Positions 7,092 through 31,441 of a stretch of DNA of 31,802 nucleotides are shown in pieces (positions within the stretch are counted from its first letter, which is position 1; each line of letters opens with the position of its first letter). Made by a program: the position numbers and the translations under genes. Below the pieces are notes generated by a model, which had not been told where the DNA came from, searched no databases, and saw nothing but the letters and a program-made list of their open reading frames with translations. Location: assembly GCA_013696365.1 (NCBI GenBank), contig JACCYS010000337.1, forward strand, positions 1-31,802. Direction: 5' to 3'. Source of the DNA: Nocardioidaceae bacterium (lineage in GTDB: Bacteria > Actinomycetota > Actinomycetes > Propionibacteriales > Nocardioidaceae).

Positions 7092-9083
7092 TCAGTGCAC
7101 GCCAGCCCCAGTACGCTCCGCCGCGCGACGGGTGACGCGGTCGAGCATGATGCCGAGGAACACGATCGCCGCTCCCGCCGCGATGCCCTTGCCGAAGAAC
7201 TCGCCCTGCGAGAAGCCGAGCACCGAGTCGTAGCCGAGCGCCCCCGCACCGACCAGGCCGCCGATGACCGTCATGGACAGCACGAACAGCAGGCCCTGGT
7301 TGGCGGCGAGGACCAGACCGCCGCGGGCCATCGGCAGCTGCACCCGGGTGATGACCTGCCACGGGGTGGAGCCAGCGGCGGTCGCCGCCTCCACCGTCGT
7401 CGGCGAGACGCCCTTGATGCCGTCGGCGACCAGCTTGATGGCGACCGGAGCGGCATAGATGACCGCGGCCACGATCGCCGTGAACCGGGTCGGCCCGAAC
7501 AGCAGCAGCGCCGGAATCAGATAGACGAACGGCGGCATCGTCTGGCCGGCGTCCAACACCGGACGGAGCACCGTGTCGACCGACGGTCGACGCGCCATCC
7601 AGACCCCCAGCACGACGGCTAGCACCATCACCAGCAGGGTGGCGACGAGCACCATCGTCAGCGTCACCATGGAGTCGTTCCAGAGGTCGGTGAGATAGAT
7701 GCCGGCCAGGCAGACACCCGCGGTGAGACACCCCCGCACACCGCCGAGCACGAGCGCGAATGCTGCGATCGCTACCGCCGCCAGCCACCACGGAGAGTTG
7801 GCCAGCAGGTCCTGCAGCGGGTTCAGCAGCAGGGCCGTGACCTGGTTCTTCACGCCCGAGGTGACCACGTCGAAGGTCGAGGTGACCCAGTCGGCGCCCG
7901 ACTGGACCGCGGCGGCGACTGACGAGCCGAGGTCGGTGTCGGGGAACTCGGCCGCCCACAGGTAGGTGCGCGACAGGTAGACCAGAACCAGCGCGGCTGC
8001 CCCGCTGACGGCGAGCACGATCCGGTGCCGGCGGACGTCTCGACCGCCGGCGCGGGCGACGGTCTCGGCGCGCACGCTCGCCGCGGTCGTCGTGCGGTCG
8101 AGCATCACCGCCATGATCACGATGCAGAAGCCGGCGACGAAAGCGGTGCCGACCTGCTGGGCCGACAGCGCCCGCAGGACCGGCTGGCCGAGGCCCGGGC
8201 CGTCGACGAAGGCTGCGATGGTGGCCATCGACAGCGCCGCCATCACGGTCTGGTTGATGCCCACGATGATGGTCTTCTTGGCCATCGGCAGCTGCACCTG
8301 CAGCAGCCGCTGCCGGCCCGTCTGCCCGAGCGAGTCGGTGGCCTCGAGCGTGCTGGCCGCGACCGAGCGGATCCCGTGCGCGGCGATCCGCACCACCGGT
8401 GCGAGGGCGTACAGAAACGTCGCGGCGACTGCAGCCGGCAGTCCAATGCCGAAGAACAAGGTGAGCGGCAGCAGGTAGATGAAGGCGGGCACGGTCTGCA
8501 GCACGTCCAGCACCGGCGTGAGCAGCGTCGTCACCGTCTTGCTGGTGGCCATCCACACCGCGAGCGGCAGCCCGATAGCCAGCGCGATCCCGACGGCGAA
8601 GAACGTGACGATCAGGGTGTCCAGGCTGTCCTCCCACAGGCCGAGCAGGCCAAAGGAGAGGAACGAAGCAACGACGAGCAGCGTGATCCGCCAGCCGGCG
8701 ATAGCGTGGCTCAGCCACGCCGCCACCGCGATGACCCCGAGCCAGCCGACCTGTGGCACTGGGCGCGGAAACGCCGGCTGCGCGACCAGCTCCTGCAGCC
8801 ACCCGCCGATGCTCGCGAGCAGGTCGGCCAGCACGCCGGTGACCTGCATCAGCACGTTGCTTTCCCGGCTGTCGATGAGGTCACCCTTGAGCCCGGTGAA
8901 CCAGTCGTGCAGCCCGGTGCGTCCCAGACCGGGCAGCGCCAGAGTGTCGTTGCCGCGCAGGCCCGCCCACGCCGCGATCCACAGCGCCAGCACCGCAACA
9001 CCGAGCAGCCAGCCCGGCGGCCGTCGCAGCAGCGAGCCGATCCCCTCGACACCTGAACCGCCGCGGACGGCTGTGACACTCAT
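7092..9083 (-). CDS. ABC permease with two fused ProW/OpuAB-type modules, 663 aa
   Basis: Duplicated PVLDxxQTxPxFxYLxP and EAA-loop/VQLPMA motifs; ATGA overlap with the ATPase. Confidence 0.9.
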
Positions 9084-10111
9084 GCGAGCACTGCCTCCTC
9101 GGCGACGACCACTCGCAGGATCGTCTCGTCGTCGACAATCCCCACCAGCTCGCCATCGTCGACGACCCGGACGGGATGGTCCGAGGTCAGGGCCGCGTGT
9201 GCGGCCTCGCGGACGATCGTGTCCGGGCCCATCACGAGACCGTCGGAGGAGTCGTCGGGCCGCGGGTCGCGCATCACGTAGCGCAGCGTGAGCACGTGCG
9301 AGCGCGGCACGTCGCTGACGAAGTCGCGGACGTAGTCGTCGGCGGGAGCGGCCACGATTTCGGCGGCGGTGCCGACCTGGACCACCTCGCCGTCACGCAT
9401 GATGAGGATCCGGTCGCCGAGCTTGAGCGCCTCGGCGAGGTCGTGGGTGATGAACACCATCGTCTTGCCGACCTCGTGGTGCAGCCGGATGACCTCGGCC
9501 TGCATGTCCCTGCGGATCAGCGGGTCGAGAGCCGAGAACGGCTCATCGAAGAGCATCACCGTCGGATCCACAGCGAGCGCCCGGGCCAGCCCGACCCGCT
9601 GCTGCATGCCGCCGGACAGTTGGTCGGGGTAGGAGCGTTCGTTGCCTGTCAGCCCGACCAGATCCACCATCTCCTGCGCGCGGGCGTGCCGCTGCTTCTT
9701 CTTCATGCCGCGGATCTCCAGCCCGTACGCGATGTTGTCGAGCACCTGACGGTGCGGCAGCAGGCCGAAATGCTGGAAGACCATCGACACGTGTGTGCGG
9801 CGCAGCTCACGCAACCGGGCATCCGACATCGTGCGCACGTCCTCGCCGTCGAGCAGCACCTCGCCAGCCGTCGGCTCGATCAGCCGCGTCAGGCAGCGCA
9901 CCAGCGTGGACTTGCCGGAGCCGGACAGCCCCATCACGACGAACACCTCCCCCGGGGCCACGTCGAACGACACGTCCTTGACTGCGGCCGTGCAACCAGT
10001 GCGGTCCAGCAGCTCTGCGCGGGGCAGGTCGGCGTCGGGGCTCCCGACGATCTTGTCGGCGCGCGGGCCGAAGACCTTCCACAGCTGGTCGACTGAGAGT
10101 GCAGCAGTCAC
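9080..10111 (-). CDS. Betaine/proline/choline ABC ATP-binding protein (ProV/OpuAA family), 343 aa
   Basis: [36 protein letters not shown]; GTG start overlaps the betA stop. Confidence 0.93.
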
Positions 10112-11820
10112 CGGCGCACGTCCTGTCCGTTTCGGGGGTCACCGGGAGGATACGGCTGACTGCCGTCGCGGTGGCGGTAGAACGGCACATCCGCAGGCGG
10201 CAGGGCGGTGTTGCCGGCGATCAGGTCGGCGGCCTTCTCGGCCAACATCATCACCGGGGCATAGATGTTGCCGTTGGTGATGGCCGGCATCGCCGACGCG
10301 TCGACGACGCTCAGGCAGCGCAATCCGTGCACCCCCATCGTCTCGGGGTCGAGCGCTGCCAGCTCGTCACTTTCGGCGCCCAGGCTGGCGGTGCACGACG
10401 GGTGGTAGGCGGTTTCGGCGTCCCGGGCCACCCAGTCGAGGATCTGTTCGTCGGTCTCGACGTCCGGGCCGGGTGACAGCTCACCTGCGTCGAAGGCCAC
10501 AAAGGCCGGCTGCGACAGGATGTCGCGCGCAACGCGTACGCACTCCACCCACTCCTGACGATCCTTGGGGGTCGACAGGTAGTTGAACTGCAGCGACGGA
10601 TGCTGCCGCGGGTCGGTGGAGCGGATCGTCACCGACCCGCGGACGTCGGAGTACATCGGGCCGATGTGCACCTGATACCCGTGCTTCTCCGCCGGCTGGC
10701 TGCCGTCGTAACGGATGGCGATCGGCAGGAAGTGGAACATCAGATTGGGATAGTCGACGGCGTCATTGGTGCGCACAAACCCGCCGGCCTCGAAGTGGTT
10801 GGTCGCCCCCAGCCCGCTGCGCAGGAACAACCACTCTGCCCCGATCCGCGGACGGTGCCGCCAGCGCAGCCCGGGGGCGATCGACACCGGCAGCTTCGAG
10901 GCATGCTGCACGTAGACCTCGAGATGGTCCTGCAGGTTGGCACCCACACCGGGAAGAGCGGCGACGACGTCGATGTCGAGCCCCCGCAGCAGGTCGGCAG
11001 GCCCGATCCCGGACAACTGCAGCAGCTGGGGGGTGTTGATGGCGCCACCGCTGCAGATGACGTGCCCGGCACGCACCGAGCGGTGCAGCCGGCCGGCCCG
11101 CAGGTAGTCGACACCGACCGCCCGGTCGCCCTCGAACACGATGCGGGTTGCATGCGCCAGGGTCTCGACGGTGAGGTTCTTCCGGTCCCGCACCGGGTGC
11201 AGGTACGCGCGAGCCGCGCTGAGCCGCCGACCGCGGTGGACGTTGCGGTCGAAGCGGGCGAATCCTTCCTGGCGGTAGCCGTTGACGTCGTCGGTCAGCG
11301 GGTGGCCCGCCTGCTGGGCAGCCTCCAGGAAGGCACCGAACAACGGGCCGGACGCGGCGCCGCGCTCCAGCACCAGGGGGCCGCTGCCGCCCCGCCAGGA
11401 GTCGGCACCGGCAAGGCAGGTCTCCATCCGCTTGAAGTACGGCAGGCAGTGGGCGTAGTCCCACCTCGCCATCCCAGCGGCGCTCGCCCACCCCTCGAAG
11501 TCCAGCGGATTGCCGCGCTGGAAGATCATCCCGTTGATGCTGCTTGACCCGCCGAGCAGCTTGCCGCGCCCGTGGAACACCCGTCGCCCACCCATCTGCG
11601 GCTCCGGGTCGGAGTGGTATCGCCAGTCGTAGAAGCGGCTGCCGATGGGGAACGGCAGTGCTGCCGGCATATGGATGAACGGGTCGATCTTGAGGTCGGA
11701 GCGGCCGGCCTCGAGGACCAGCACGGTCGTGCTGCGGTCAGAGCTCAGCCGGTTGGCGAGCACGCAGCCGGCCGACCCGCCACCGACGATCACGTAGTCG
11801 TAGGTCTTGTCAGTGCTCAT
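10108..11820 (-). CDS. betA: Choline dehydrogenase (GMC oxidoreductase), 570 aa
   Basis: Starts [18 protein letters not shown] (ATG at 11820); [38 protein letters not shown]. Confidence 0.92.
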
Positions 11821-11827
11821 CGCAAAT

Positions 11828-13309
11828 TCATTTCCGGCCACCGAACCAACCTTGCGGCTGTGGGGCAATGTGCTGCCAGATGTGCTTGGTCTCGCGATAC
11901 TCCTCAAGCCCGGCCAGGCCCAGCTCGCGTCCGGTGCCGGACTGCTTGTACCCGCCCCACTCGGCGTGCGGGACGTACGGGTGGTAGTCGTTGATCCATA
12001 CCGTGCCCATCCGCAGCCGGGCGGCCACCCGCTGGCCGCGACCGGAGTCGGCTGTCCATACCGCACCGGCCAGCCCGTAGCGGCTGTCGTTCGCGAGCCG
12101 GACCGCGTCGTCCTCGTCGGTGAACGTCTCGACGGTCAGGATCGGTCCGAACGATTCCTCCTGTACTACCCGCATCGCGCTGGCACAGCCGTCCAGGACG
12201 GTGGGCAGGTAGTAATAGCCGTCGGCCAGCTGCGGGTCGTCCGGCGTCGACCCGCCACAGCGCAGCACCGCCCCCTCGGCGAGGCCGTCTGCGACGTAGG
12301 CGGCGATCTTGTCGCGGTGCGCCGCCGAGATCAGCGGACCGGTCTCGGCCTGTTCGTCGAACGGCCCACCGAGCCGAATCGCTTCGGCACGAGCGACCAG
12401 TTCGTCGACGAACTCGTCATGGATCGACTCGGCGATGACCAGCCGAGCGCCAGCTGAGCAGACCTGGCCAGAATGCAGGAACACCGCCGTCAGGGCCATG
12501 TCCAGGGCCGTCTCGCGGTCTGCATCAGCGAACACGATGTTGGGATTCTTGCCGCCAAGCTCGAGGGCGACCTTCTTCACGGTGGCCGCGGCAGCTGCCA
12601 TAACCGACCGGCCAGTGACCACGCCGCCGGTGAACGACACCAGATCGACATCGTGGTGCTCGGACAGCGGCGCCCCGGCCTCCGGCCCGGCCCCCAGGAC
12701 GAGGTTTGCCACGCCGTCGGGCAGCCCGGCTTCGACAAGCAACCGCATCAGCCAGATCGCCGAGGACGGCGTCAGCTCGCTCGGTTTGAGCACGAAGGTA
12801 TTGCCCGCCGCCAGGCAGGGCGCCACTTTCCACGACGTCTGCAGTAACGGGTAGTTCCAGGGGGTGATCAGGCCACAGACTCCGACCGGCTCACGGACCA
12901 CCCGGCTGACGACGTCTGGCTGGCCGGTGTCGATGACCCGGCCCGCGTCCGCACCGGAGACGGTCAGACCGGCGTAATGCCGGAACACCGCGGCCACGTC
13001 GTCGACGTCGTACTCGCTCTCGACCAGGCGCTTGCCGGTGTCCAGTGACTCCGCCCGAGCCACGTCGTCCTTGTGTTCAAGCAACAGGTCAGCAACCCGC
13101 CAGAGCACCGCCCCGCGTTCCGGGGCAGGCGTCTGCGGCCAGGCACCATTGTCAAATGTGGCCCGGGCGGCGTGGATCGCCGCTTCGGCATCGGTCCGTC
13201 CCGCCTCGTCGACGGTGGCGACCAGGCGCCCGTCGGCGGGGCAGCGGATCGGGCGCGTGGCGCCGGACTGGGCGCCCATCCACTGTCCGCCGATCAGCAG
13301 GTCCGCCAT
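11828..13309 (-). CDS. betB: Betaine aldehyde dehydrogenase, 493 aa
   Basis: ALDH motifs PWNYP, KPSE, FTGG, LELGGK, GQVCSAG, EESFGP; directly upstream of betA. Confidence 0.88.
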
Positions 13310-13350
13310 ATGCCTCCGCCCACAAGGATCGCATCATCCGTGCGTCTAGC

Positions 13351-13386
13351 GTTGCGCATTACGCAACGAATAATAGTATACGCAAC
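13351..13386. promoter_or_regulatory. betB promoter region: operator GTTGC-N7-GCAAC plus half site and -10
   Basis: GTTGCgcattacGCAAC at 13351-67; second GCAAC half site ending 13386; minus-strand TATACT at 13375-80. Confidence 0.75.
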
Positions 13387-13404
13387 AGCATGCTGGTGGG
13401 TCAT

Positions 13405-14214
13405 CTAGCCGTCAAGCGCCCGGTCGAGGGGTGGACGCCACCCTAGTCGGCGCGACACCTCACCCGCGGTCTCACGGGTGGCAGTGATCGCGGACCCCAG
13501 CCGCTCGCCCGTCAACCGAAACGTCGGCCCAGACACGCTGATCGAGGCCACGACATCCCCATGCGCGTTGCGTACCGCTGCGGCGACCGCGGTGAGACCG
13601 ACCTCGAGCTCGTCCACCGCCACCGCATACCCGGTGGCTCGCACCTCGGCCAGCTGGGCGGTCAGCACCGCCAGGCTGGCGACGGTGTTGTCGGTGAAGG
13701 TGCGCGGTCGGCGACCGACCACCTGGGCCGCGTCCGCGTCCGGCATCGCCGACAGCAATACCTTGCCGTTTGAGGTGGCGTGCAAGGGGATGCGCTGGCC
13801 GACCCAGTTGTGTGGTTGCAGTGCCGACGAACCGGCGACTTGATCCACATACAACGCGGCATCGTCGGACAAAACGGTGAGGTTCACCGTCTCTCCGGTC
13901 TGCACGGCCAGCGCACGGCACAACCCCCGCGACTCCTGCACCAGGTCCAACCGCGCGGTGGTGGCCGCAGCCAGACGAATCAGCCCGACGCCAAGCCGGT
14001 ACTTGCCGCGCTCGGCGTGCTGCTCGACCAGCCCACGTCGCTCGAGTGCGGAGACAAGGCGAAACGCCGTTGACTTGTGCACGCCCAGCTCGCCGGCGAT
14101 CTCAGTGACACCGCACTCGCCGGCGTGCGCGAGGATCTCCAGCACACTGACCGCACGGTCGACCGACTGCACTGTTGATGCGCCAGCCGACTGCCCCGCC
14201 CCACTGTTGCTCAT
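13405..14214 (-). CDS. IclR family transcriptional regulator (IclR-1), 269 aa
   Basis: VQSVDRAVSVLE, HKSTAFRL HTH, GQRIPLHATSNGK, DELEVGLTAVAA, ISVSGP. Confidence 0.93.
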   Translation of the reverse strand: MSNSGAGQSAGASTVQSVDRAVSVLEILAHAGECGVTEIAGELGVHKSTAFRLVSALERRGLVEQHAERGKYRLGVGLIRLAAATTARLDLVQESRGLCRALAVQTGETVNLTVLSDDAALYVDQVAGSSALQPHNWVGQRIPLHATSNGKVLLSAMPDADAAQVVGRRPRTFTDNTVASLAVLTAQLAEVRATGYAVAVDELEVGLTAVAAAVRNAHGDVVASISVSGPTFRLTGERLGSAITATRETAGEVSRRLGWRPPLDRALDG

Positions 14215-14225
14215 GGAGGAACACT

Positions 14226-14226
<1 letters not shown>
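14206..14226. promoter_or_regulatory. Hybrid operator GTTGC-N7-GGAAC overlapping the IclR-1 start codon, purU SD and a candidate leaderless -10
   Basis: tGTTGCtcatggaGGAACac at 14205-24; GGAGG at 14215-19; minus-strand TAGTGT at 14221-26, 6 nt before the IclR-1 ATG. Confidence 0.6.
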
Positions 14227-15801
<1,575 letters not shown>

Positions 15802-15907
15802 TGTCCGGACAGCCGAACGTGCCGCGCGCAGCCGGCGGGGGTTCCGAAATCGCCCTCGGGGGCACACACTTGTTGGATTGACATAGTCGGCGGCGAGGAG
15901 TTACCCC

Positions 15908-16606
15908 ATGCCTGCAACACCCCATGGCCTACCCGAGCTGGTGCCGGTGCTCGCTCGCGGCAAGCATCGCAACCCACGCAAGGGTGCCTGCTTCATGGAG
16001 CTCGCCTCATACCTCGCCGGTGAACGCTGGAGCGACCGCCCAAGCTGCACCCATCCGCTGCTGTCCGAGGTGGCGCGGCTGGTGAACGATTTGACCAGTG
16101 ATGCCGGCCGGCCCCGGCTGGCCGGGCTCATTCCAGCGGTGATCGGCGTGACGACCGATGACGTGCGGATGGACGCCGAGATCGCGCTGCGTTGCGCACA
16201 ATCGGCGCTGCCGGTTGTTGCCGAGGACCGTCAACGGGTGCTGGCCGTCTCAGTACTGAGTGGCGAACGGGTACTGGCCACCCTCGAGGGTCGCCCCATC
16301 GACGAGTTGTCGGACGTCAGCCGAGCTGCTTTGGGGAGTGTGCCGTTGGCCGCTGATCGCGCTCGCACGCTGCTGGGCGACGTTGGCGTCGCGGTGCGCG
16401 GCTACCGCAAGCACGCAGCGCCGGCAACTGTCCGCTGCGCAGTGCGCGGCCTCGCCGAGGCGTGTGTGCCCGACCCCGACCAGCTGATGCTTCGACTGCT
16501 GGACGATGTGATCGTCGCGTGCGAGCCGTGGCGGACGACGGCAAACAACCCACGGGTGGCGCCCGAGATGTGGGTGGACGCCTGCCAACTGACCGGCGGC
16601 AACTGA
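15908..16606 (+). CDS. Hypothetical protein, 232 aa
   Basis: GAGGAG SD before ATG; protein-like composition; N-terminal RGKHRNPRKGACFMELASYLAGERWSDRPSCTHP that I recall from uncharacterised actinobacterial proteins (not searched). Confidence 0.75.
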   Translation: MPATPHGLPELVPVLARGKHRNPRKGACFMELASYLAGERWSDRPSCTHPLLSEVARLVNDLTSDAGRPRLAGLIPAVIGVTTDDVRMDAEIALRCAQSALPVVAEDRQRVLAVSVLSGERVLATLEGRPIDELSDVSRAALGSVPLAADRARTLLGDVGVAVRGYRKHAAPATVRCAVRGLAEACVPDPDQLMLRLLDDVIVACEPWRTTANNPRVAPEMWVDACQLTGGN

Positions 16607-16617
16607 GCCCCCGAGAG

Positions 16618-18057
16618 TCAGTCCCCGAGCTCGCGCCGACGGCGGGTGACGAAGTCCTCGAGCTCGGCGCGGATCCCCTCGTCCAGTGCCGGCTGCTCGT
16701 AGGACTCCAACCGCTGCTGCCAGATGTTCTCGGCGCGGGCGGCCGTATCCAACGCCCCGTTCTTTACCCAACGCTCGTAGTTGTCCGAGCTTGACAGCAG
16801 CGGGCGGTAGAAGCAGGTGCGGAAGCGCTCCATCGTGTGCATGGCGCCGAGAAAGTGCCCGCCGTGCCCCACCTCCTCGTGAGCTCCGAACGCGAGCGAG
16901 TCATCGTCGATCTCGAGCGGGGTGAACTCGGCCTGCAACATCTGCAGCAGCTCGACATCGACGATGAACTTCTCGAAGCCGGCGACCAGCCCGCCCTCCA
17001 GCCAGCCCGCCGAGTGCATCACCCAGTTGGCGCCGGCGAGAAAGGCCGGCAGCATCGACATCAAAGCCTCATAACCGGCCTGCGCGTCTGGGACCTGACT
17101 TGAGGTGAGTGCCCCGCCGGAGCGAAAAGGCAGGCCGAAGTGGCGGGCGATCTGGCCGGTGCACAGCAGGCCGATGCCGGACTCGGGGGTACCGAAGGTC
17201 GGCGACCCCGACTGCATATTGATCGTGGACAGGAACGAACCGAACACCACCGGTGCACCGGGCCGGATGAGCTGGGCCAGCGCGATACCGCTGAGCGCCT
17301 CGGCGATCTGCTGCACCAGGGCCGCCGGAATCGTCACCGGGGACATCGCCCCCATCAACAGGAACGGTGTGAGCACCACCGGTTGAGCGGCGCCGACGTA
17401 CTCGAAGAGCGCGTCCAGCATCCGGTCGTCCCAGCGCAACGGGGAATTGCAGTTGATCAACGAGATGGTCACCGGTGTGGCTTCGATGGCGGCTCGGCCG
17501 CCGAAGCAGATGTCACACATCGCCAGTACGTCGCGGGCGTTCAAACCGCTCACCACGTTGCCCATGAAAAGCTTGTCGGTGAGCGTCATCAGCGCGTACG
17601 TCATGTCGAGATGTCGAGAGTCGAGCGGAGCGTCGTTGGGCTCACAGACGACGCCGCCGGCTGAGTCCAACGCGTCGAAGGATTGCGCGAGCCGGGCGAA
17701 GTTGCGGTAGTCGTCCATGGTGGCGTCCCGGCGCACCTGCCCCTGGCGGACGAACGGGGGGCCGTACACCGCGCCGAAGGCCATCGCGTCGCCCCCGATG
17801 CGCACGGAGTGGTCGGGGTTGCGGGCGGCGATGTCGAACTCGGCCGGCGCCTTGGCCACCTGTGCGAGGACGAACTCGGGATCGAGGAAGACCGTGTTGT
17901 CGACCACCCGCTGGCCGGCGGCCCGGAACATCTCCAGCGCCGGCTCGGACATGAACTCGACGCCGATCTCGGTGACGATGCGGCGCCAGCCGGCGTCGAG
18001 CTTGTCCATCGCGTCGGCGGACAGGATTTCGTATCGCGGCATCTTGTTGTGGAACAC
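16618..18057 (-). CDS. MttB-superfamily (trimethylamine methyltransferase-like) non-pyrrolysine corrinoid methyltransferase, MtgB-like, 479 aa
   Basis: GTG start with AAGGGAGG SD; INCNSPL, PVTIPAAL, SGSPTFGTPE, VPDAQAGYEA, LAGANWVMHSAGWLEGG, GPGG-like GHGGHFLG. Confidence 0.88.
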   Translation of the reverse strand: MFHNKMPRYEILSADAMDKLDAGWRRIVTEIGVEFMSEPALEMFRAAGQRVVDNTVFLDPEFVLAQVAKAPAEFDIAARNPDHSVRIGGDAMAFGAVYGPPFVRQGQVRRDATMDDYRNFARLAQSFDALDSAGGVVCEPNDAPLDSRHLDMTYALMTLTDKLFMGNVVSGLNARDVLAMCDICFGGRAAIEATPVTISLINCNSPLRWDDRMLDALFEYVGAAQPVVLTPFLLMGAMSPVTIPAALVQQIAEALSGIALAQLIRPGAPVVFGSFLSTINMQSGSPTFGTPESGIGLLCTGQIARHFGLPFRSGGALTSSQVPDAQAGYEALMSMLPAFLAGANWVMHSAGWLEGGLVAGFEKFIVDVELLQMLQAEFTPLEIDDDSLAFGAHEEVGHGGHFLGAMHTMERFRTCFYRPLLSSSDNYERWVKNGALDTAARAENIWQQRLESYEQPALDEGIRAELEDFVTRRRRELGD

Positions 18058-18068
18058 GTGTGCCTCCC

Positions 18069-18097
18069 TTGACCTACGAACGGTGGCATTCTAGCCT
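18069..18097 (+). promoter_or_regulatory. Candidate promoter for the IclR-2/corrinoid operon
   Basis: TTGACC-N17-TAGCCT; a divergent -10 TAGAAT (18088-93, minus strand) overlaps it. Confidence 0.55.
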
Positions 18098-18114
18098 CAT
18101 AATGTGGGAACATG

Positions 18115-18131
18115 GTTCCATCAGATGGAAC
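18115..18131. promoter_or_regulatory. Candidate IclR operator GTTCC-N7-GGAAC
   Basis: GTTCCAtcagaTGGAAC palindrome in the divergent MT1/IclR-2 spacer; extra GGAAC half site at 18107-11. Confidence 0.75.
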
Positions 18132-18170
18132 ATGCCAGTGAAATCCTAGGGCAGACGGAGACGAGCAGCG

Positions 18171-18932
18171 TTGAGCAGTACCGGCACCCAGGCGATCGAC
18201 CGGGCGGCTGACTTGCTGCGCCTGGTGGTGCACGCCGACGAGCCGATCAGCTTCACTGATCTGGCCGACGAGAGCGGGCTTGCGCGGTCGACGACGTCTC
18301 GGCTGTTGGCTGCACTGGAGCGCCATCAACTGCTCGAACGCGATGCCGGCGGCTATTTCGTAGCGGGTCCGCTGTTCGCCCTCTACGCCGCCCGGCATGA
18401 TCCGTGGGCCCAGGTGGCCCGGTTGGCCACCCCGACACTGGAGCGCATCGGGGACAAGGTGGGCGAGACGGTCACGCTCGCCATTCCGCGCGGCGACCAG
18501 GTCGTGCAAATCGCACAGGTGGACTCGACCTTCCTGCTTGGCACCGGCGACTGGCTGGGCGTCGAGGTACCGCCGCACTGCTCGGCAGCCGGCAAGGTGC
18601 TCTTGGCCTTCGGCTGCATCGACACGCCGGAGGCTGACCTGCCTCGACTGACCGATCATTCCGTCACCACGCTGGACGACCTCGAACGCCAACTTCGAGC
18701 CATCCGCCGCACCGGATATGCCATCGCCAGCGAGGAGCTCGAGGTCGGACTGGACGCCGTCGCGGCACCCGTGCTCGGGCGCGACGGAGCCGTGGTTGCA
18801 GCCGTCAGCGTCTCCGGTCCCACCAGCCGCATGTCCGATCAGATCGATCATGTCGGTCACATGTTGGTCGACCAGGCGCAGCAGATATCCGACCTGCTGC
18901 GTCGCCGTACCCCGAAAGAAGGCGCAGCATGA
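18171..18932 (+). CDS. IclR family transcriptional regulator (IclR-2), 253 aa
   Basis: TQAIDRAADLL, ARSTTSRLL HTH, PPHCSAAGK, EELEVGLDAVAAP, VSVSGP; TTG start; ATGA overlap with the next gene. Confidence 0.92.
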   Translation: MSSTGTQAIDRAADLLRLVVHADEPISFTDLADESGLARSTTSRLLAALERHQLLERDAGGYFVAGPLFALYAARHDPWAQVARLATPTLERIGDKVGETVTLAIPRGDQVVQIAQVDSTFLLGTGDWLGVEVPPHCSAAGKVLLAFGCIDTPEADLPRLTDHSVTTLDDLERQLRAIRRTGYAIASEELEVGLDAVAAPVLGRDGAVVAAVSVSGPTSRMSDQIDHVGHMLVDQAQQISDLLRRRTPKEGAA

Positions 18933-19594
18933 AACCTGACGAGATCCTGCAAGGCCTCTACGACCTCACCCTGGTGGGCAACGCCCCCGAGGTGCTGGAA
19001 CTGACTAATGCCGGCCTGGCAGCCGGGATGGGGCCGGAGACCATGTTGTTCGACGCGCTCATCCCCTCGCTGGAGGAGGTGGGTGCGCGCTTCGAACGCG
19101 GAGACTTTTTCGTGCCCGAGATGCTGATCGCCGGCCGCGCGATGAGCGGTGCGATGGAGGTGCTGCGTCCGCTGCTTGCCGAGACCGGCGCGCAACAGGT
19201 CGGCACATTCCTGATGGGGACAGTCAAGGGCGACGTCCATGACATCGGCAAGAACCTCGTGAACATCATGCTCGAGGGCGCTGGCTTCAATGTCATCGAC
19301 CTCGGGGTGCAGGTTGCGCCGGAGAAGTTCGTGGAGGCCATCAATGAGCACAAGCCGGACGTAGTCGGCTTCTCGGCGTTCCTCACCACCACCATGCCGA
19401 TGTTCAAAGCCAACCTGAATGCCCTGCAGAAGGCCGGCATCCGCGACAACGTGATCGTGATGGTCGGCGGAGCCCCCGTCACCCAGGAGTACGCCACCGC
19501 TGTCGGTGCCGATGGCTACGCCGCCGACGCATCCTCGTGCGTCAAGAAGGCCAAGGCGCTGATCGCCGAGCGCCGAGCCGCCGTCACCGCCTGA
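18929..19594 (+). CDS. Stand-alone corrinoid (B12-binding) protein, MtgC/MttC-like, 221 aa
   Basis: Cap domain (ERFERGDFFVPEML) plus base-off/His-on motif DVHDIGKN, SAFLTTT and VGGAP. Confidence 0.93.
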   Translation: MKPDEILQGLYDLTLVGNAPEVLELTNAGLAAGMGPETMLFDALIPSLEEVGARFERGDFFVPEMLIAGRAMSGAMEVLRPLLAETGAQQVGTFLMGTVKGDVHDIGKNLVNIMLEGAGFNVIDLGVQVAPEKFVEAINEHKPDVVGFSAFLTTTMPMFKANLNALQKAGIRDNVIVMVGGAPVTQEYATAVGADGYAADASSCVKKAKALIAERRAAVTA

Positions 19595-19619
19595 CCCCCC
19601 GATAGATCAAGGAACCCCG

Positions 19620-20507
19620 ATGACCCTGCGCCACACCGTCCTCCGCTCAGCGACCAAAGAGGTCGTATTAGGCCATGACCGCCCTTTCACGGTGATCGGC
19701 GAGCGAATCAACCCGACGGGACGCAAGAAGTTTCAGGAACAGTTGCGCTCCGGCGACCTGTCCGCGATCGACACCGACGTGGCCGCGCAGGTGGCTGGTG
19801 GCGCCGACGTACTCGACGTGAACATGGGTGTGCCGCTGACCGACGAGCCGGAGCTCCTGCGCCAAGCCATCGTGCGCGTGCAGGAGTTGACCGACTTGCC
19901 TGTCTGCATCGACTCGTCCGTGGTCGAGGCGTTGGAGGTCGGCTTGGCGACCTACCAAGGTCGCGCTCTCGTCAACTCCGTCACCGCCGAGGATGACCGG
20001 CTGGCTGCCATCTTGCCGCTGGTGAAGCGGTACGACGCGGCGATCATCGCGCTGCCCAACGATGAAGACGAGATCCCGATGGAGGCCGACAAGCGCCTCG
20101 AGCTGACCCGCAAGATCGTCCGGGTCGCCACCGAGGAGTACGGCCTCGCGATCGAGGACATCGTCATTGACCCGCTCGCCATGCCCATCGGGGCGGACAC
20201 CAGCGTGGTCGCGACCACGCTGGACACGATCAGCCGGATCCTGGCCGAGTTCGGGCTGAACATGACCCTGGGTGCCTCCAACGTCTCCTTTGGTATGCCC
20301 GGTCGGCACACGATCGGGGCAGCGTTCTTGCCGATGGCGATGGTTGCCGGCCTGACCAGCGCCATCATGGATGCCCGCAGCCCGCAGATCGTCGAGTCCG
20401 TCAAGGCCGCTGACCTGCTGCTCGGGCATGACGAGTGGGGTGGCGCCTGGATCGCTGCGCACCGCGCGCGGCAGGCCGCTGAGCGGGCGGCGGCGCCCGT
20501 CGCGTGA
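19620..20507 (+). CDS. Methylcorrinoid:tetrahydrofolate methyltransferase (pterin-binding domain; MtgA/AcsE-like), 295 aa
   Basis: VIGERINPTGRK, LDVNMG, CIDSS, LVNSV, IDPL, GASNVSFG, as in the MetH folate domain. Confidence 0.9.
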   Translation: MTLRHTVLRSATKEVVLGHDRPFTVIGERINPTGRKKFQEQLRSGDLSAIDTDVAAQVAGGADVLDVNMGVPLTDEPELLRQAIVRVQELTDLPVCIDSSVVEALEVGLATYQGRALVNSVTAEDDRLAAILPLVKRYDAAIIALPNDEDEIPMEADKRLELTRKIVRVATEEYGLAIEDIVIDPLAMPIGADTSVVATTLDTISRILAEFGLNMTLGASNVSFGMPGRHTIGAAFLPMAMVAGLTSAIMDARSPQIVESVKAADLLLGHDEWGGAWIAAHRARQAAERAAAPVA

Positions 20508-22525
20508 GCGGCCCAGCACCCGAGGACGAGCCGGAGCCGGTCCAGGTGCCGGACCGCTCCGCCCATGACGTCGGCGCCTTTGACCTCGGCGACTTTGACC
20601 TTGGCTCGCTGGCACGCGAAGGGTTGTGGGAGCCGCAGGAGCAGGTGAACACAGCCGAGGCAGGCCAGCATGAGGGCCTTGGGCGGGTGCGCCTGCACTT
20701 CACTCCGGCGGACAAGTCGTATGCGGTGCCCCCAGGCGTGACCGTCTTTGACGCCGCCAGTTGGAACGGCATCGCCATCGACTCGACCTGCGGCGGGCAC
20801 GGCACCTGCAAGAAGTGCAAGGTGCAGGTGACCGGCGGCGAGGTGCCCGCGAGCCGGCTCGACGAGCGGGCATTCAACCCGGAGCAGCTGGCGACGGGGT
20901 GGCGACTGGCCTGCCGGGTCACAGCCACCACCGACCTGAGCGTCGACGTGCCGCCACTAGCGACCCGGCCGAAGGCTGCCACCGTCGGTGTGGGCCGCCA
21001 GGTCATCTTGCGTCCAGCGGTGCAGAAGCGCTTCGTGCGGCTTGACGAGCCGACCCTGCACGACCAGCGACCGGACCTGCGGCGGCTCACCGATGCCGTC
21101 GACGACCTCGCGCTGCGGCCAACCCTGCACGTGTTGCGCCGTCTGCCCCGCGTGCTGCGTGAGTCCGATTTCGCGCTCACGGCCGTGGTGGTCGACGACC
21201 TGCTGATCGACGTCGAGCCCGGTGACACCACCGCGACCCGGCACGCCATCGCGTTCGACCTCGGGACGACCACCGTGGTGGCAACGCTGCTCGACCTCGG
21301 CACCGGCACACCGGTCGCAGTCGCCTCGATGCTGAACGCTCAGCAGCCCTTTGGCGCGGACGTCATCACCCGGATCTCAGCGACCATGCTTGACCCGACA
21401 GCCCTGGATCGTATGCGGGAGCTGGCCATCCAGACGCTCAACACCCTCGTCGGTGAGGTGTGCGACGAGGCCGGCATCGAGCGCAGCAGCGTCTACGAGC
21501 TGGCGGTCGCAGGCAACGCCACGATGACCGCGCTGCTGCTCGGGGTCGACCCCGAGGCGTTGGGAGTGGCGCCGTTCGTGATGACCGCCGACCACTTCAC
21601 GTCGCTGACCGCCGCCGATATCGGCATCGGCGTACACCCGGTCGCGCCGGTGCAAGTCTTCCCGGCCCTTGGCGCCTACGTCGGGGGCGACATCGTCGCC
21701 GGCATGCTCGCCTCGGGGATGGATCGGGACAAGCGGCTGCGGTTGTTCATCGACGTCGGCACCAACTGCGAGATCGTGCTCGCCGACGGCGAGACCATCG
21801 TGGCCACCGCGGCACCAGCCGGGCCGGCCTTCGAGGGAGGTGCCATCCGCTGCGGCATGCGGGCCGCATCCGGTGCCATCGAGGTGGTGCAGATCGGCAC
21901 CGACACCGTCTCGGTGCAGGTGATCAGTTCCGGCGCCGACACCACAGTCGCGCCGGTCGGCCTGTGTGGCTCTGGGCTCGTGGACGCCGTCGCCGAGCTG
22001 GTGCGGGTCGGACTGCTGGACCGCACCGGCCGCTTCGTGGCCGACGGCGACGCCGCCGTGGCGCACCCGCAGCTCGCCGACCGACTGACTCGGGTGGGTG
22101 AAGAGCGAGTGTTCGTGCTTGCCTGGCTGGGCGACGAAGGGGACGTGTCCGACTCGGTGTACGTCTCCCAGCGTGACGTTCGCGAGCTGCAGTTTGCCAA
22201 GGCGGCCATCGCTACCGGCTGGTCACTGCTGTGCGCCGAGCTCGAGGTCGACCCCCGCGACGTGCAGCAGGTGTTGCTCGCCGGCTCATTCGGCTCGTAC
22301 CTGTCTCCTGGCAACGCGGTGCGGATCGGCCTGGTGCCCGAGCTGCCCGTGCTGCGCATCGTCAGCGCTGGCAACGTCGCCGGCGAAGGCGCCAAGATGA
22401 GTCTGCTCAGCATGCCTGAGCGCGCTGGGGCGGCCACCTTGCTCAAAGAGGTGCGGTATCTCGAGCTGTCGGATCGAGCCGACTTCAACGACAGGTTCAT
22501 CGACCAGCTGTCCTTTCCAGGCTGA
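20504..22525 (+). CDS. Reductive activator of corrinoid proteins (RACo/RamA-like; [2Fe-2S] plus ASKHA ATPase), 673 aa
   Basis: CGGHGTCKKC...RLAC ferredoxin motif; AFDLGTTT, FIDVGTNCE, APAGPAFEGG, GLCGSG, LAGSFG, GNVAGEGA. Confidence 0.9.
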   Translation: MSGPAPEDEPEPVQVPDRSAHDVGAFDLGDFDLGSLAREGLWEPQEQVNTAEAGQHEGLGRVRLHFTPADKSYAVPPGVTVFDAASWNGIAIDSTCGGHGTCKKCKVQVTGGEVPASRLDERAFNPEQLATGWRLACRVTATTDLSVDVPPLATRPKAATVGVGRQVILRPAVQKRFVRLDEPTLHDQRPDLRRLTDAVDDLALRPTLHVLRRLPRVLRESDFALTAVVVDDLLIDVEPGDTTATRHAIAFDLGTTTVVATLLDLGTGTPVAVASMLNAQQPFGADVITRISATMLDPTALDRMRELAIQTLNTLVGEVCDEAGIERSSVYELAVAGNATMTALLLGVDPEALGVAPFVMTADHFTSLTAADIGIGVHPVAPVQVFPALGAYVGGDIVAGMLASGMDRDKRLRLFIDVGTNCEIVLADGETIVATAAPAGPAFEGGAIRCGMRAASGAIEVVQIGTDTVSVQVISSGADTTVAPVGLCGSGLVDAVAELVRVGLLDRTGRFVADGDAAVAHPQLADRLTRVGEERVFVLAWLGDEGDVSDSVYVSQRDVRELQFAKAAIATGWSLLCAELEVDPRDVQQVLLAGSFGSYLSPGNAVRIGLVPELPVLRIVSAGNVAGEGAKMSLLSMPERAGAATLLKEVRYLELSDRADFNDRFIDQLSFPG

Positions 22526-22543
22526 CCGGCCCGACCGGCCAAC

Positions 22544-23395
22544 TCAGCGGACCGGCACCGGCCCCAACAGCCGCTGGCGCCACCGTTCGGTCTCGGCAAC
22601 CTGGTTGAAGGTGAACAGGTGCAGCCCGGCGACCCCCGTCACCGGGTCGTTGAACAGGTCGGCAGTGCGGCTGAGCAGCCGCTCCGGGCTGAAGCCACCC
22701 GGTGCCGCGATCCGCGCGAAGATGGAGGCGTTCTTGGCCAGGAATCTGGTGGACTCCCCCACCCCGATCTTGGTCGCCATCGCCAGCAGCTTGGTGCGCT
22801 CCACCGGTCCAGGCACTCCCATCAGCACGGGCAGGTTGATGCCGCGGGCACGCATGCGCCGCACCCAGGTGCGCAGCTCGACGGGATCGAAGCAGAGGTT
22901 CCCCACCACATACGTGGCGTGCGCACGCTTGTCCCACATCGCCTGGATGGCCAGGTCGTCGGAGATGGACGGGTGGCTTTCGGGGTACCCGGTGATCCCG
23001 ACCTGTGCGAACGGGCGTCCGAGCTCGGTGAGGTCGCGGATCAGCTCAAGCGAGCCGTGATAGTCCCCGGCCGGCGGATCCGCGTCCCCGGCTGGGACGA
23101 ACACATTGCTGACTCCGAACCCGACGAGCCGCGCGGCCAGGTCAGCCAGGTGCTCGCGGTCACGCACCATCCTCGCCGCCACATGCGGCACCACCTGATA
23201 GCCGTGGGAGGCGAGCCGCTCGGCACAGTCGAGGGTCGCGTCCAGTCCCTTGCCAGCCGAGGCCGTCACCGTCAGCGTGGTGCCAAGCGGCACCGACTCC
23301 AGCACTGCGGCCTCAATGCTTGCTGTCGGCAGCACCTCATACCGGGCAGCCGTGAGCGCGGCACGAAGCCCCGCAGATCGCACTGTGCTTGCCAT
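22544..23395 (-). CDS. metF: Methylenetetrahydrofolate reductase family protein, 283 aa
   Basis: RYEVLP, VPHVAAR, VFVPAGD, GITGYPESHP, LHLFTFN. Confidence 0.87.
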   Translation of the reverse strand: MASTVRSAGLRAALTAARYEVLPTASIEAAVLESVPLGTTLTVTASAGKGLDATLDCAERLASHGYQVVPHVAARMVRDREHLADLAARLVGFGVSNVFVPAGDADPPAGDYHGSLELIRDLTELGRPFAQVGITGYPESHPSISDDLAIQAMWDKRAHATYVVGNLCFDPVELRTWVRRMRARGINLPVLMGVPGPVERTKLLAMATKIGVGESTRFLAKNASIFARIAAPGGFSPERLLSRTADLFNDPVTGVAGLHLFTFNQVAETERWRQRLLGPVPVR

Positions 23396-28958: not shown

Positions 28959-29264
28959 TCACATCCCCGGCTGGTCGGGGACCAGCACCGCGAGAACCAC
29001 AATCGTGGCACCCAGCGCGATCATCACCAGCACGTCCGACCCGGTGCGCCGTATGTGCAGCAGCCCGGTGTGCCGCTCGGGCAGCACGATCCTGGCGAGC
29101 GAGGCCAGTACTACCGCCGAGCCTACGATCGTCAAACCGACCCGCCACTGGTCCACCGCGACGATCACCAGGCCGAGGAAAGTCACGGCCAAGGTGAGCA
29201 CGACGACGAGCGAACCGTACGGACGCCCGGCCGGTCCCGGCCGAGATATGCCGGGTCGTGGCAT
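28959..29264 (-). CDS. DUF3017-like small membrane protein, 101 aa
   Basis: Three hydrophobic segments with [17 protein letters not shown]; position between folD and mdh; TGATG overlap with folD. Confidence 0.78.
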
Positions 29265-30118
29265 CAGCCGCCAGCCTGCTGTTCGGCGGCCTCGACGACA
29301 TTGGTGAGCAGCAGCGCACGGGTCATGGGGCCGACACCCCCAGGGTTGGGCGACACCCAAGCAGCCACCTCGGCGACGTCGTCGGCAACATCACCGACGA
29401 TGCCGCCCTGCACCCGGCTCACGCCGACGTCGAGCACGGCGGCGCCGGGTTTGACCATCTCAGCGGACACGATGCCCGCCACGCCGGCAGCAGCGACCAC
29501 GATGTCGGCGCGACGCACCTCAGCGTGCAGGTCCTGGGTGCCGGTATGGCACAGCGTCACCGTCGCGTTCTCACTGCGGCGGGTGAGCAGCAGGCCCAGC
29601 GAACGGCCGACGGTGATTCCCCGGCCGATCACGGTCACGTTGGCCCCTGCGATGGGCACGTCGTGGCGGCGAAGCAGCTCGATGACGCCACGCGGGGTGC
29701 ACGGCAGCGGGGCAGGCTTGCCGAGCACCAACCAGCCGAGGTTGGTGGGATGCAGACCGTCCGCGTCCTTGACCGGGTCGATCCGTGCGAGCACCGCGTT
29801 CTCGTCCCTGCCCTTCGGCAACGGCAGTTGCACGATGTAGCCGGTGCAAGCCGGGTCGGCGTTCAGCCCATCGACCTCGCGCTCGATCTGCTCCTGGGTG
29901 GCATCAGCAGCCAGGTCAACTCGGATCGACTCGATGCCGACCTCGGCACAGTCTCGGTGCTTGCCGCCGACATACCAGCGGCTGCCGGGGTCGTCGCCGA
30001 CCAGCACGGTGCCTAGACCCGGCACGACTCCGCGGTCCCGCAGTGCGGCGACCCTGCGCTTGAGGTCAGCCTTGATGGCTGCCGCGGCTGCCTTGCCGTC
30101 GAGGATCTGCGCTGTCAC
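29264..30118 (-). CDS. folD: Bifunctional methylene-THF dehydrogenase/methenyl-THF cyclohydrolase, 284 aa
   Basis: GTG start MTAQILDGK; [41 protein letters not shown]. Confidence 0.96.
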
Positions 30119-30192
30119 GGTCGCCGAGTCTGCCACGGCGGGACACCGGTGGATCACACCCGCCGCCGCTGCCTCCGCCATTCGCCCCCGAC

Positions 30193-30280
30193 CGAGTGGC
30201 GCAAATCGGCCAGACTGCCCGCGTGAGTGGCGCAATACGTGCGTGAATCGGGCGGCGTACGGGGCTTCTTGCGCCACTCG
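30193..30280. repeat. REP/REPIN-like inverted-repeat unit, left
   Basis: GAGTGGCGCAA at 30194 and 30225; inverted TTGCGCCACTCG at 30269-80. Confidence 0.85.
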
Positions 30281-30342
30281 ACCGGGCGGAGCCCAGGCTG
30301 GCACCGGCGGGCGGCGCCAGGGTCGACGCCAGTAATCAACAG

Positions 30343-30351
30343 TTGTCCACA
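30343..30351 (+). promoter_or_regulatory. DnaA-box consensus match TTGTCCACA
   Basis: Exact match to TT(A/G)TCCACA in the folD/nuclease-like gene spacer; single copy. Confidence 0.4.
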
Positions 30352-30439
30352 GGGGCGGCTGCAGCGGCCACCACCGGGGCCAACCTCGACCCACACTCAG
30401 CCCGTGGATCGGCAGGCAAGCGCTCGTACCCATCCCAAT

Positions 30440-31387
30440 ATGAGCGGCAGGCGGCGACGTAGCCGCGACTGGGAGTCACCTGCACACGGACTGCATGCGC
30501 CCGCTGGCAGCGTGCAGGAGATCCCGGCGCTGGCACGGGCAGTCAGCACGGTGCTGCCCGCAACCGCGGCGTTCACCCACCTCACTGGGGCAGCCCTTCG
30601 CGGCTGGGCATTGCCCGACCGGGTCCAGACCGATGTGCCCATCATTGTCAGCAACGGCGCACCGACTCCGCATCTCAACCGCCGCGGGGTCTACGTTCGC
30701 CGGTGTCACCTCGAGCCACTCGACGTCGAGGTTGTCGATGGCATCGCCGTGGCGTCTGCTGCGCAGATCCTGCGCGAGCTTGCAGAGGACTTGGCGTTGC
30801 TCGACTTGGTGGTGGCCATCGACTCGGCGCAGCACCTTGGTGACCTGTCGACCGAGGCGCTGGCGACTCTGATACGTCCGCATCGCCGCGGGTCGGTCCG
30901 GTTGATGCGGGCGCTGGCATTGGCTGACTGGCGCAGCGAGTCCGGGTGGGAGACGCTGCTCAGGCTCGTGCACGTGCTGTCTGGGCTGACTGCGGTCGAG
31001 CCGCAGCGCGTGCTAACCGATGCGTGGGGCACACCGATCACCCGGGCGGACCTGTGGCTGGTGGGTACGAACCGCCTGCACGAGTACGACGGCGCCCACC
31101 ATCTTCTCCCGCATCAACAGCGGGAAGACCGTCGGCGGGACAACGAACTGTTGCGGGCCCGCTATGACCGACGCGGCTACACGCGGCCAGACATCACCCT
31201 GCACGCTGCCCGGATCGTGCGCGATGCCGAGGATGCCTTCGGCCTGCCACACGATCCCCGGCGGGTGCAGGGGTGGCTGCGGGAGTATCGGAGGTCGAGC
31301 CACTCCGCGTCCGGGCAACGGGCCCTGCTCGAGCGACTGCATCGCTATCGCCGCCCGGTGCCGCCTCGGTCGACTCGCACCCGCTGA
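30440..31387 (+). CDS. AbiEi-like/DUF559 (Vsr/PD-(D/E)xK-fold) family protein, 315 aa
   Basis: [35 protein letters not shown]...HEYDGAHH...DRRRDNEL pattern of this widespread actinobacterial family; ATG 30440. Confidence 0.7.
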
Positions 31388-31441
31388 GTGGCGCAGAACG
31401 AGCGGGCAACAGCCCGCGGGGCGGCCATCTTGCGCCACTCG
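31385..31441. repeat. REP/REPIN-like inverted-repeat unit, right
   Basis: TGAGTGGCGCA at 31385-95 (includes the gene's TGA stop); inverted TCTTGCGCCACTCG at 31428-41. Confidence 0.85.

Follow-up and report, generated by a model that had tools for sequence, protein, structure and literature searches.

The locus

The window analysed here is a stretch of 31,802 nucleotides from a Nocardioidaceae bacterium of dry soil (assembly GCA_013696365.1, contig JACCYS010000337.1). It corresponds to contig C341 of the host assembly, which comprises 2.63 Mb in 381 contigs and is 93% complete with 69% G+C. Metagenomes of soil, rock, sand, and other terrestrial sources, from many different studies, contain near-identical DNA. 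Positions 16618–23395 of the window carry a compact set of genes for cobalamin-dependent methyl transfer, which probably acts in the manner of the aerobic MtgBCD glycine betaine demethylase.

The methyltransferase MT1, a non-pyrrolysine member of the MttB superfamily that resembles MtgB (479 amino acids; PF06253, 622 bits), is encoded on the minus strand at 16618–18057. As the gene coordinates show, an intergenic region at 18058–18170, a probable promoter/operator, separates it from a divergent operon on the plus strand. The first gene of the operon encodes an IclR-family regulator (18171–18932; HTH_IclR and IclR_C). It is followed by the genes for an MtgC-like corrinoid (B12-binding) protein of 221 amino acids (18929–19594; PF02310 and PF02607), for MT2, a methyl-corrinoid:tetrahydrofolate methyltransferase of the MeTr/AcsE/MetH-pterin-module type that resembles MtgD (19620–20507; Pterin_bind and NF005719), and for a RACo-type ATP-dependent reductive activase with an N-terminal [2Fe-2S] ferredoxin domain (20504–22525; Fer2, RACo_linker, Raco_middle, and RACo_C_ter). 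A divergent MetF paralogue of the S6MTHFR/MetF2-like kind (PF02219, 40.6 bits) lies on the minus strand at 22544–23395, convergent to the activase gene. The genes are tightly packed, with overlaps of 4 nt between iclR and the corrinoid protein gene and between the MT2 and RACo genes, and a gap of 18 nt between the RACo and MetF genes. The first-pass annotation of this DNA had named five of these genes and had left iclR out of its gene list; all five lie where it had placed them, with family matches far above chance.

The methyltransferase MT1

MT1 matches PF06253 over model positions 25–500 of 500, and its open reading frame (ORF) of 479 codons has no internal stop and no in-frame amber codon. 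It scores 272.5 bits against the pyrrolysine MttB equivalog TIGR02369, under the cut-off of 525, and only 131 bits against Methanosarcina MttB, the pyrrolysine trimethylamine enzyme (PDB 7XCL). A search of the PDB has given full-length matches to MtgB of Desulfitobacterium hafniense (2QNE/9YCE; 408 bits) and to a homologue from Sinorhizobium meliloti, the substrate of which is not assigned (4YYC; 415 bits). A structure-function study published in 2026 has described four betaine contacts in MtgB, namely Tyr97, Phe356, Arg312, and His348 (PMC13080624). Three of these are kept in MT1 as Tyr98 (MtgB Tyr97), Arg312, and His348, and they are invariant in 81 orthologues. In place of a tree against the characterised enzymes, MT1 was judged by its bit scores in the PDB, its active-site residues, and its gene context. 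A complex of MT1 and the corrinoid protein was also predicted; its score of 0.27 against a mark of 0.34 weighs neither way.

The corrinoid protein, MT2, activase, and MetF

The corrinoid protein consists of a B12-binding_2 cap and a Rossmann B12-binding domain, and carries the DxHxxG motif as DVHDIG at residues 102–107. Its best NCBIfam match is the MtgC_2 model with 204 bits against a cut-off of 370, and the other MtgC model gives 149.5 bits against 310 (NF047996 / NF047995). MT2 scores 303.7 bits against NF005719, over the cut-off of 259, and its best PDB matches are MeTr/AcsE (2YCK and 1F6Y) and the folate modules of MetH. No D. hafniense MtgA structure occurs among its PDB matches at E ≤ 1e-5. 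As judged from these matches, MT2 is of the MeTr/AcsE/MetH folate-module type and not of the type of Desulfitobacterium MtgA, in agreement with MtgD of the aerobic system. The likeness to MtgB, MtgC, and MtgA to which the first pass had pointed holds for MT1, at 408 bits, but does not extend to MT2. The activase contains all four RACo Pfam domains over their cut-offs, with Cys96, 102, 105, and 137 in the Fer2 part, and stays under the equivalog cut-offs of AcsV (435 vs. 800 bits) and RamA (103 vs. 500 bits). The first 60 residues are of low complexity, and the actual start may lie beyond them.

The MetF of the window scores only 39–41 bits against PF02219, whereas a canonical MetF on contig C248 of the same genome scores 321 bits. 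Its best PDB match is S6MTHFR of Sphingobium SYK-6 (7XG9) with 104.7 bits over nearly the full length, compared with 36 bits for the canonical MetF of T. thermophilus. S6MTHFR oxidises methyl-tetrahydrofolate (methyl-THF) made by demethylases, and its signature consists of three segments, the loop beta2-alpha3, the helix alpha8, and the loop beta8-alpha11 (PMC11868366). The MetF of the window is thus a second, divergent copy and, by homology, probably of the methyl-THF-oxidising type. A MetH is encoded elsewhere in the host, on contig C200, as an open frame of 1086 amino acids that runs to the contig end.

Neighbouring genes

A group of context genes lies on the left of the cluster. The gene purU for formyl-THF deformylase, the end of the one-carbon (C1) oxidation branch, lies at 14175–15107 on the plus strand (TIGR00655, 323 bits vs. 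a cut-off of 286). A second IclR-family regulator (Pfam match) follows at 13405–14214 on the minus strand, as do all remaining genes of this group. A betaine-aldehyde dehydrogenase-like gene, betB, is found at 11828–13309 (Aldedh, 552 bits; TIGR01804 BADH, 610 bits, just under the cut-off of 669), and the choline dehydrogenase gene betA at 10108–11830 (TIGR01810, 790.7 bits vs. a cut-off of 732). The listed ORF of betA extends to 12066, and the family match begins near residue 86. An OpuA/ProVWX-type ABC importer for betaine/choline occupies 6023–10111 and comprises the ATPase gene proV (9080–10111; ABC_tran), a fused permease for proW (7092–9083; BPD_transp_1 in two stretches), and an OpuAC binding protein (6023–7018). 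Beyond it lie a dimethylglycine (DMG) oxidase/dehydrogenase-like flavoenzyme with a folate-binding GcvT domain (3363–5885; DAO, FAO_M, GCV_T, and GCV_T_C), which scores 513 bits against the DMG oxidase of Arthrobacter (PDB 1PJ5), and the electron transfer flavoprotein (ETF) genes etfB (2590–3366) and etfA (about 1589–2599), with matches to ETF and ETF_alpha. On the other side of the cluster, folD for methylene-THF dehydrogenase/cyclohydrolase lies at 29264–30433 on the minus strand; its domains THF_DHG_CYH and THF_DHG_CYH_C are matched from residue 111, and its start is probably over-extended. With folD and purU in addition to MetF, the window encodes all the steps that would lead from the N-methyl group to formate.

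The profile matches agree with the neighbours that had been claimed for the cluster (betA, betB, a ProVWX importer, and a DMG enzyme), and confirm etfBA, purU, and folD as well. The window itself contains neither a Rieske oxygenase nor a betaine-homocysteine methyltransferase (BHMT), as had also been claimed, and candidates for both are found elsewhere in the genome. Profile matches to QcrA and COX1 in the genome indicate oxygen respiration, as supposed earlier for an apparently aerobic host.

Two other parts of the window were also inspected. Between purU and MT1, at 15310–16606, an ORF of 163 amino acids matches only positions 46–169 of the 446-position model of the alpha-amylase catalytic domain; the ORF of 232 amino acids after it has no family match and is kept only in the three closest relatives. 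This region looks like the remnant of a truncated glycosidase. The ORFs at 30227–31387 (plus strand) and 31013–31801 (minus strand) have no Pfam match even at E = 0.1.

Conservation and distribution

A scan with one genome per species has revealed more than 565 genomes with a relative of MT1. The best 80 of these, all 80–93% identical, were compared gene by gene, and the compared loci comprise named Nocardioidaceae and Intrasporangiaceae. MT1 is 90–93% identical to proteins from metagenome-assembled genomes of Nocardioidaceae/Propionibacteriales and 80–84% identical to those of cultured Nocardioides, Phycicoccus, and Oryzobacter. Cultured carriers include Nocardioides caldifontis, N. iriomotensis, N. 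panacisoli, and Phycicoccus sp. HDW14 (loci L033, L084, L085, and L040). A corrinoid protein gene occurs near MT1 in 75 of the 80 loci, MT2 in 74, RACo in 69, and MetF in 64, and absent partner genes mostly coincide with short contigs. An IclR-like match is present in the MT1 flank in 79 loci; about a dozen of these matches are at 33–40% identity and may represent a paralogous IclR-1. At a distance of up to 10 kb from MT1, betB is found in 60, proV in 52, and purU in 49 of the 80 loci, and in Phycicoccus the DMG enzyme and the etf genes adjoin the cluster. The presence of the genes, their family membership, their order, and their linkage to betaine genes are direct observations.

Of 151 genomes sampled from the same family, 70 give a match to MT1 at E ≤ 1e-50, and in about 67 of these the identity is 75% or more. 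Carriers account for 45 of the 98 high-quality genomes and 34 of the 60 genera in this sample. The family tallies take in three genomes flagged as unpublished (G031, G077, and G136), and no claim is made on these alone. When 400 genomes were sampled evenly across the phylum, only three others had an MT1 match, so the system is concentrated in a few families. A survey of related genomes for co-occurrence with betaine genes and absence of gbcAB had been suggested by the first-pass annotation. The frequency of betB given above answers the first part; as to the second, no protein in the 151 family genomes exceeds the cut-off of the GbcA equivalog (NF058607), and GbcA-like proteins of at least 360 bits occur in only about 16 of them.

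Four soil metatranscriptomes (X27–X30) contain contigs of 200–600 nt that are 80–90% like MT1, the corrinoid protein, MT2, and RACo. These contigs come from relatives and may include carried-over DNA, and they give a hint that the cluster is expressed.

A second corrinoid system and a Rieske operon in the host genome

In addition to the gene set of the window (system A), the host carries a second set, system B, at C67:2736–7385 and C191:3853–9720. The two parts are contiguous in a closed genome of the same genus (L107:9420–19462). System B encodes a DAO oxidase, a corrinoid protein, DUF1638, a PF13769 'virulence factor' protein, an MT2, a RACo, an MttB paralogue of 525 amino acids (MttB-B), and a dimethylglycine dehydrogenase (DMGDH)-like enzyme that scores 544 bits against human DMGDH. 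All six genomes of the same genus in the family sample carry it. MttB-B shares only 41% identity with MT1, carries Ala at the position of Tyr97, and scores 313 bits against D. hafniense MtgB. The cassette known from the aerobic betaine demethylases is fully annotated on alphaproteobacterial plasmids, for example p1 of Paracoccus methylovorus. Against the p1 cluster, the corrinoid protein, MT2, and RACo of system B are 70%, 61%, and 51% identical, and those of system A 47%, 46%, and 32%. These identities place system B with the alphaproteobacterial type and system A of the window in a separate lineage. Rfam models matched no riboswitch or other RNA family in the window or on C232, C67, and C191, and no sign was seen of cobalamin-riboswitch control as reported for gbcAB of Phaeobacter.

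The two systems of the host differ in DUF1638. Of the 62 related loci that cover the junction of RACo and MetF, 58 have a DUF1638 gene in this position. Only the window and four loci of the same genus (L027, L028, L045, and L058) are without it; all those genomes carry system B, and the sole DUF1638 copy of the host is that of system B on contig C67. As far as can be read from these comparisons, the DUF1638 gene has been lost from the betaine-linked operon in this genus. It is tentatively proposed, as an idea with more against it than for it, that two corrinoid demethylases with different substrates operate in the same aerobic genome of 2.6–2.9 Mb and share DUF1638 in trans, with MttB-B acting on a methylated amine that is unassigned to any MttB enzyme.

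Contig C232 contains a further operon at 307–3303 (L018), with a DAO oxidase, a Rieske N-demethylase of the GbcA/Stc2 family, and the start of a homocysteine S-methyltransferase. In loci with 80%-identical homologues (L116–L118), the operon adjoins an OpuA-type transporter and soxA/soxG (sarcosine oxidase). No protein in the host genome reaches the cut-off of the GbcA model (NF058607, 670 bits), the best being the C232 Rieske protein with 405.6 bits, and none reaches that of the BHMT model (NF005718, 338 bits), to which the N-terminal domain of MetH scores 144 bits and the C232 fragment 46. A full-length methyltransferase in the same position beside an 80%-identical Rieske homologue (L116) scores 109 bits against the BHMT model. 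No orthologue of C232 was found in five genomes of the same genus, and the contig may therefore be accessory or mis-binned. A GbcA-like gene that follows an FMN/FAD oxidoreductase in the same genus was considered as a guide to the context of the C232 Rieske gene and was dropped, as it is 39–41% identical and not an orthologue.

Proposed route and competing explanations

The proposed route would begin with uptake of choline or betaine by the OpuA-type transporter and conversion of choline to glycine betaine by BetA and BetB. MT1 would then transfer one N-methyl group of betaine to the corrinoid protein, whose cofactor is in the Co(I) state, yielding DMG, and MT2 would pass the methyl group from methyl-Co(III) to tetrahydrofolate (THF). 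The divergent MetF would oxidise methyl-THF to methylene-THF, to be oxidised further to formate by FolD and PurU or assimilated. Corrinoid that oxygen has oxidised to Co(II) would be re-reduced by RACo with ATP and its own [2Fe-2S] domain, the DMG-oxidase-like enzyme and ETF would remove the next methyl group, and the IclR protein of the operon probably regulates the set. The substrate, flux direction, and regulation of this scheme are predicted from family membership and context. The sequence choline to betaine to DMG plus methyl-THF is the best reading because the gene set is real, its linkage is conserved, the MetF is of the appropriate type, and the host respires oxygen. Glycine betaine is accordingly the probable substrate of MT1, an assignment that draws mainly on the conserved gene context and on three of the four MtgB residues.

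Several observations weigh against this reading. The position of MtgB Phe356 is occupied by Gly in MT1 and in all 81 orthologues, and the substitution F356L in MtgB strongly raises KM (PMC13080624). Gly356 is also present in S. meliloti 4YYC and in a Paracoccus plasmid homologue, with a Trp at 352 in the motif GWLEGG; that Trp352 substitutes for Phe356 is a guess. With three of the four betaine residues present and one replaced, MT1 is classed here as MtgB-like rather than as an orthologue of MtgB in the strict sense. Homologues in the MttB family with about 43% identity to MT1 occupy other betaine contexts, so that sequence alone leaves the substrate of MT1 unfixed. DUF1638, present in most related loci, is absent from the window, which has only 18 nt at this junction (22526–22543). 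The complete system B adjoins another DMGDH-like gene and could act on betaine, as could the Rieske/homocysteine-methyltransferase operon, which in its homologues stands beside a betaine-type transporter. A paper characterising an actinobacterial member was not found in the literature searched, in line with the earlier statement that none was known, and the supplements of PMC12478193 are without Actinobacteria.

The strongest competing explanation accepts system A as real but not as the main or only betaine route. The flux would run through system B or the C232 operon, and system A would be an alternative for B12-replete conditions, as in Phaeobacter, which has both MtgBCD and GbcAB and switches between routes by cobalt supply (bioRxiv 10.64898/2025.12.19.695462). 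System B, complete and situated beside a DAO oxidase and a DMGDH-like gene with 544 bits to the human enzyme, speaks for this explanation, as does the order of DAO, Rieske, and homocysteine S-methyltransferase genes on C232. However, MttB-B lacks Tyr97, and the C232 Rieske protein, with 406 bits against a GbcA cut-off of 670, resembles the proline-betaine demethylase Stc2 (328 bits, 3VCA) about as much. The homocysteine methyltransferase reaches 109 bits against the BHMT cut-off of 338, and the best match of C232 in the five same-genus genomes is only 41% identical. Furthermore, most genomes of the 151-genome family sample with the MT1 of system A have neither system B nor a GbcA-like gene. 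This explanation is less probable than a leading role for system A, while keeping a real share of the probability. System A is the best candidate for betaine demethylation in the host, though not the sole conceivable one. The claim that the cluster fills the gap between betaine and DMG is valid within the window and cannot be carried over to the whole genome, where system B and the C232 operon are present; as to a gbcAB or BHMT elsewhere in the genome, which the first pass had named as a possible carrier of the flux, no protein reaches the cut-offs, but the GbcA-family Rieske protein and the homocysteine S-methyltransferase of C232 have to be considered.

A less likely explanation is that the cluster encodes a corrinoid demethylase with an MT1 that favours a different quaternary amine (for example proline betaine, carnitine, gamma-butyrobetaine, or choline), and that the proximity of betAB reflects a shared osmolyte regulon. 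The Gly at the Phe356 position speaks in its favour, as the aromatic pair is what differs among MtpB, MtcB, MtyB, and MthB (PMC13080624). Homologues about 43–46% identical also occur on alphaproteobacterial plasmids in non-betaine contexts, and the cluster has an IclR of its own, distinct from that beside betB. On the other hand, betB, the OpuA importer, purU, and the DMG enzyme stay linked to the cluster across 80 species-level genomes, the window has no other enzyme for the step from betaine to DMG, and the carboxylate ligands Arg312 and His348 are kept together with Tyr97. The score of MT1 against MtgB (408 bits) also exceeds that of the MttB paralogue (313 bits). The betaine route as first proposed is thus supported by the gene set, the linkage, and the type of MetF, and its specificity for betaine remains the part that is inferred, with Gly in place of Phe356.

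Plasmid pB of S. meliloti (NZ_CP141214.1, L112) carries, within 8147–22379, an MttB homologue 43.5% identical to MT1. Its neighbours are a DMGDH-like FAD oxidoreductase, a betaine-type ABC transporter, an enzyme of the mandelate-racemase family (MR/MLE), and an Xaa-Pro peptidase. Such neighbours suggest that the substrate there is a betaine of the proline type and not glycine betaine, and show that the substrate is set by context and not by family.

It is highly improbable that the corrinoid protein and MT2 mainly form a split methionine synthase, with demethylation secondary. In favour of this, both are homologous to MetH modules, and their counterparts MtgC and MtgD of Ruegeria and Phaeobacter are essential for methionine synthesis in Rhodobacterales (PMC12478193). 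Against it, the host has a MetH (the 1086-residue frame) and a canonical MetF, no homocysteine-binding MtgE-like gene lies in or beside the operon, and the operon is linked to MT1 and a catabolic-type MetF.

Corrin supply and ecological meaning

The host genome contains CbiC and seven tetrapyrrole-methylase matches, with a cluster on contig C231, and the host probably makes corrin. Corrin-synthesis genes are present in the host and two relatives (G000, G078, and G149). In two closed genomes of the same genus (G035 and G103), CbiC was not found and only two tetrapyrrole-methylase matches were detected; both B12-dependent systems are nevertheless kept, which points to scavenging of B12.

The step from betaine to DMG is usually left blank in reconstructions of actinobacterial genomes, and a genome paper on Arthrobacter goes straight from betaine to DMG oxidase (PMC3534580). 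If the proposed route is correct, the breakdown of betaine, a major osmolyte in soil, would depend on B12 in about 45% of the Nocardioidaceae genomes sampled. Some relatives appear to be without corrin synthesis, and osmolyte turnover in dry soil would then be tied to cobalamin exchange. A soil survey has counted mttB as a methanogenesis gene and has noted its mostly Nocardioides and Pseudonocardia origin (PMC12492547); these 'mttB' counts more likely represent betaine catabolism by aerobes. The value of the present analysis is in annotation and ecology and not in mechanism, and its notable points are the presence of two systems side by side, the absence of DUF1638 from the operon in one lineage, the active-site variant with Gly356 and Trp352, and the reading of 'mttB' in soil metagenomes.

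Comparison with known systems

Aerobic betaine demethylation through corrinoids has been reported before. The aerobic MtgBCD system of Ruegeria pomeroyi, with RamA and MetF2, was demonstrated genetically in 2025 (PMC12478193). In Phaeobacter inhibens, the role of mtgB1 has been established by deletion, together with a cobalt-dependent switch to GbcAB (2025 preprint, bioRxiv 10.64898/2025.12.19.695462). Mausz et al. have reported the induction of MttB-family proteins, RamA, DUF1638, and MetF2, and have described co-located clusters in other Proteobacteria. Of Actinomycetota, the papers on Ruegeria and Phaeobacter mention no more than a 5% share of marine mtgC transcripts or a role in producing B12. 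Because cobalamin-dependent, oxygenase-free betaine demethylation in an aerobe is already published, the novelty that the first-pass annotation had attached to the concept was overstated; the finding adds an uncharacterised lineage to a known pathway and does not define a new one.

The aerobic MtgBCD system of Ruegeria and Phaeobacter is built from the same families, namely a non-pyrrolysine MttB-type MT1, a small corrinoid protein, an MT2 of MetH/MeTr type, an ASKHA/RACo activase, and a second MetF. Its hosts also respire oxygen, and genes for DMG and C1 oxidation lie nearby. The sequence comparison with this system was made through plasmid p1 of P. methylovorus (47%, 46%, and 32% for the three proteins of system A). 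In contrast to that system, all parts are here in one compact operon headed by iclR, and DUF1638, an accessory there, is missing from the operon. MtgC and MtgD there also serve, together with MtgE, in a split methionine synthase of hosts that usually have no MetH, whereas here MetH is encoded on C200 and no MtgE is linked; with a canonical MetH in the host, no dual role in methionine synthesis is needed.

The anaerobic system of D. hafniense (MtgB/MtgC/MtgA; 2QNE and 9YCE; PMC13080624, PMC7154762) is alike in the full-length match of its MT1, in the conserved Tyr97, Arg312, and His348, in the MtgC model as best NCBIfam match of the corrinoid protein, and in the chemistry from betaine through Co(I) to THF. 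It differs in Phe356, which is Gly here, and in its MT2, which is here of MeTr/MetH type, and the present host is aerobic. An S6MTHFR-like MetF would oxidise methyl-THF in the present system, whereas the Wood-Ljungdahl pathway or the respiration of the anaerobe takes this part in D. hafniense. S6MTHFR itself, from Sphingobium lignivorans SYK-6 (7XG9/7XLF; PMC11868366), is the best structural match of the window MetF, and both are coupled to a demethylase that makes methyl-THF. The similarity is modest, and the partner demethylase is corrinoid-dependent here and of LigM/DesA type there.

The Rieske monooxygenases GbcAB/BmoAB and BHMT catalyse the same step from betaine to DMG by unrelated chemistry. 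The layout of the window is the same as that of the aerobic chloromethane pathway of Methylobacterium, in which CmuA and CmuB transfer a methyl group via a corrinoid to THF, followed by metF2, folD, and purU. A dedicated MetF, FolD, and PurU are all present in the window too. The chloromethane pathway differs in its methyl donor and in the family of its MT1, as CmuA does not belong to the MttB family.

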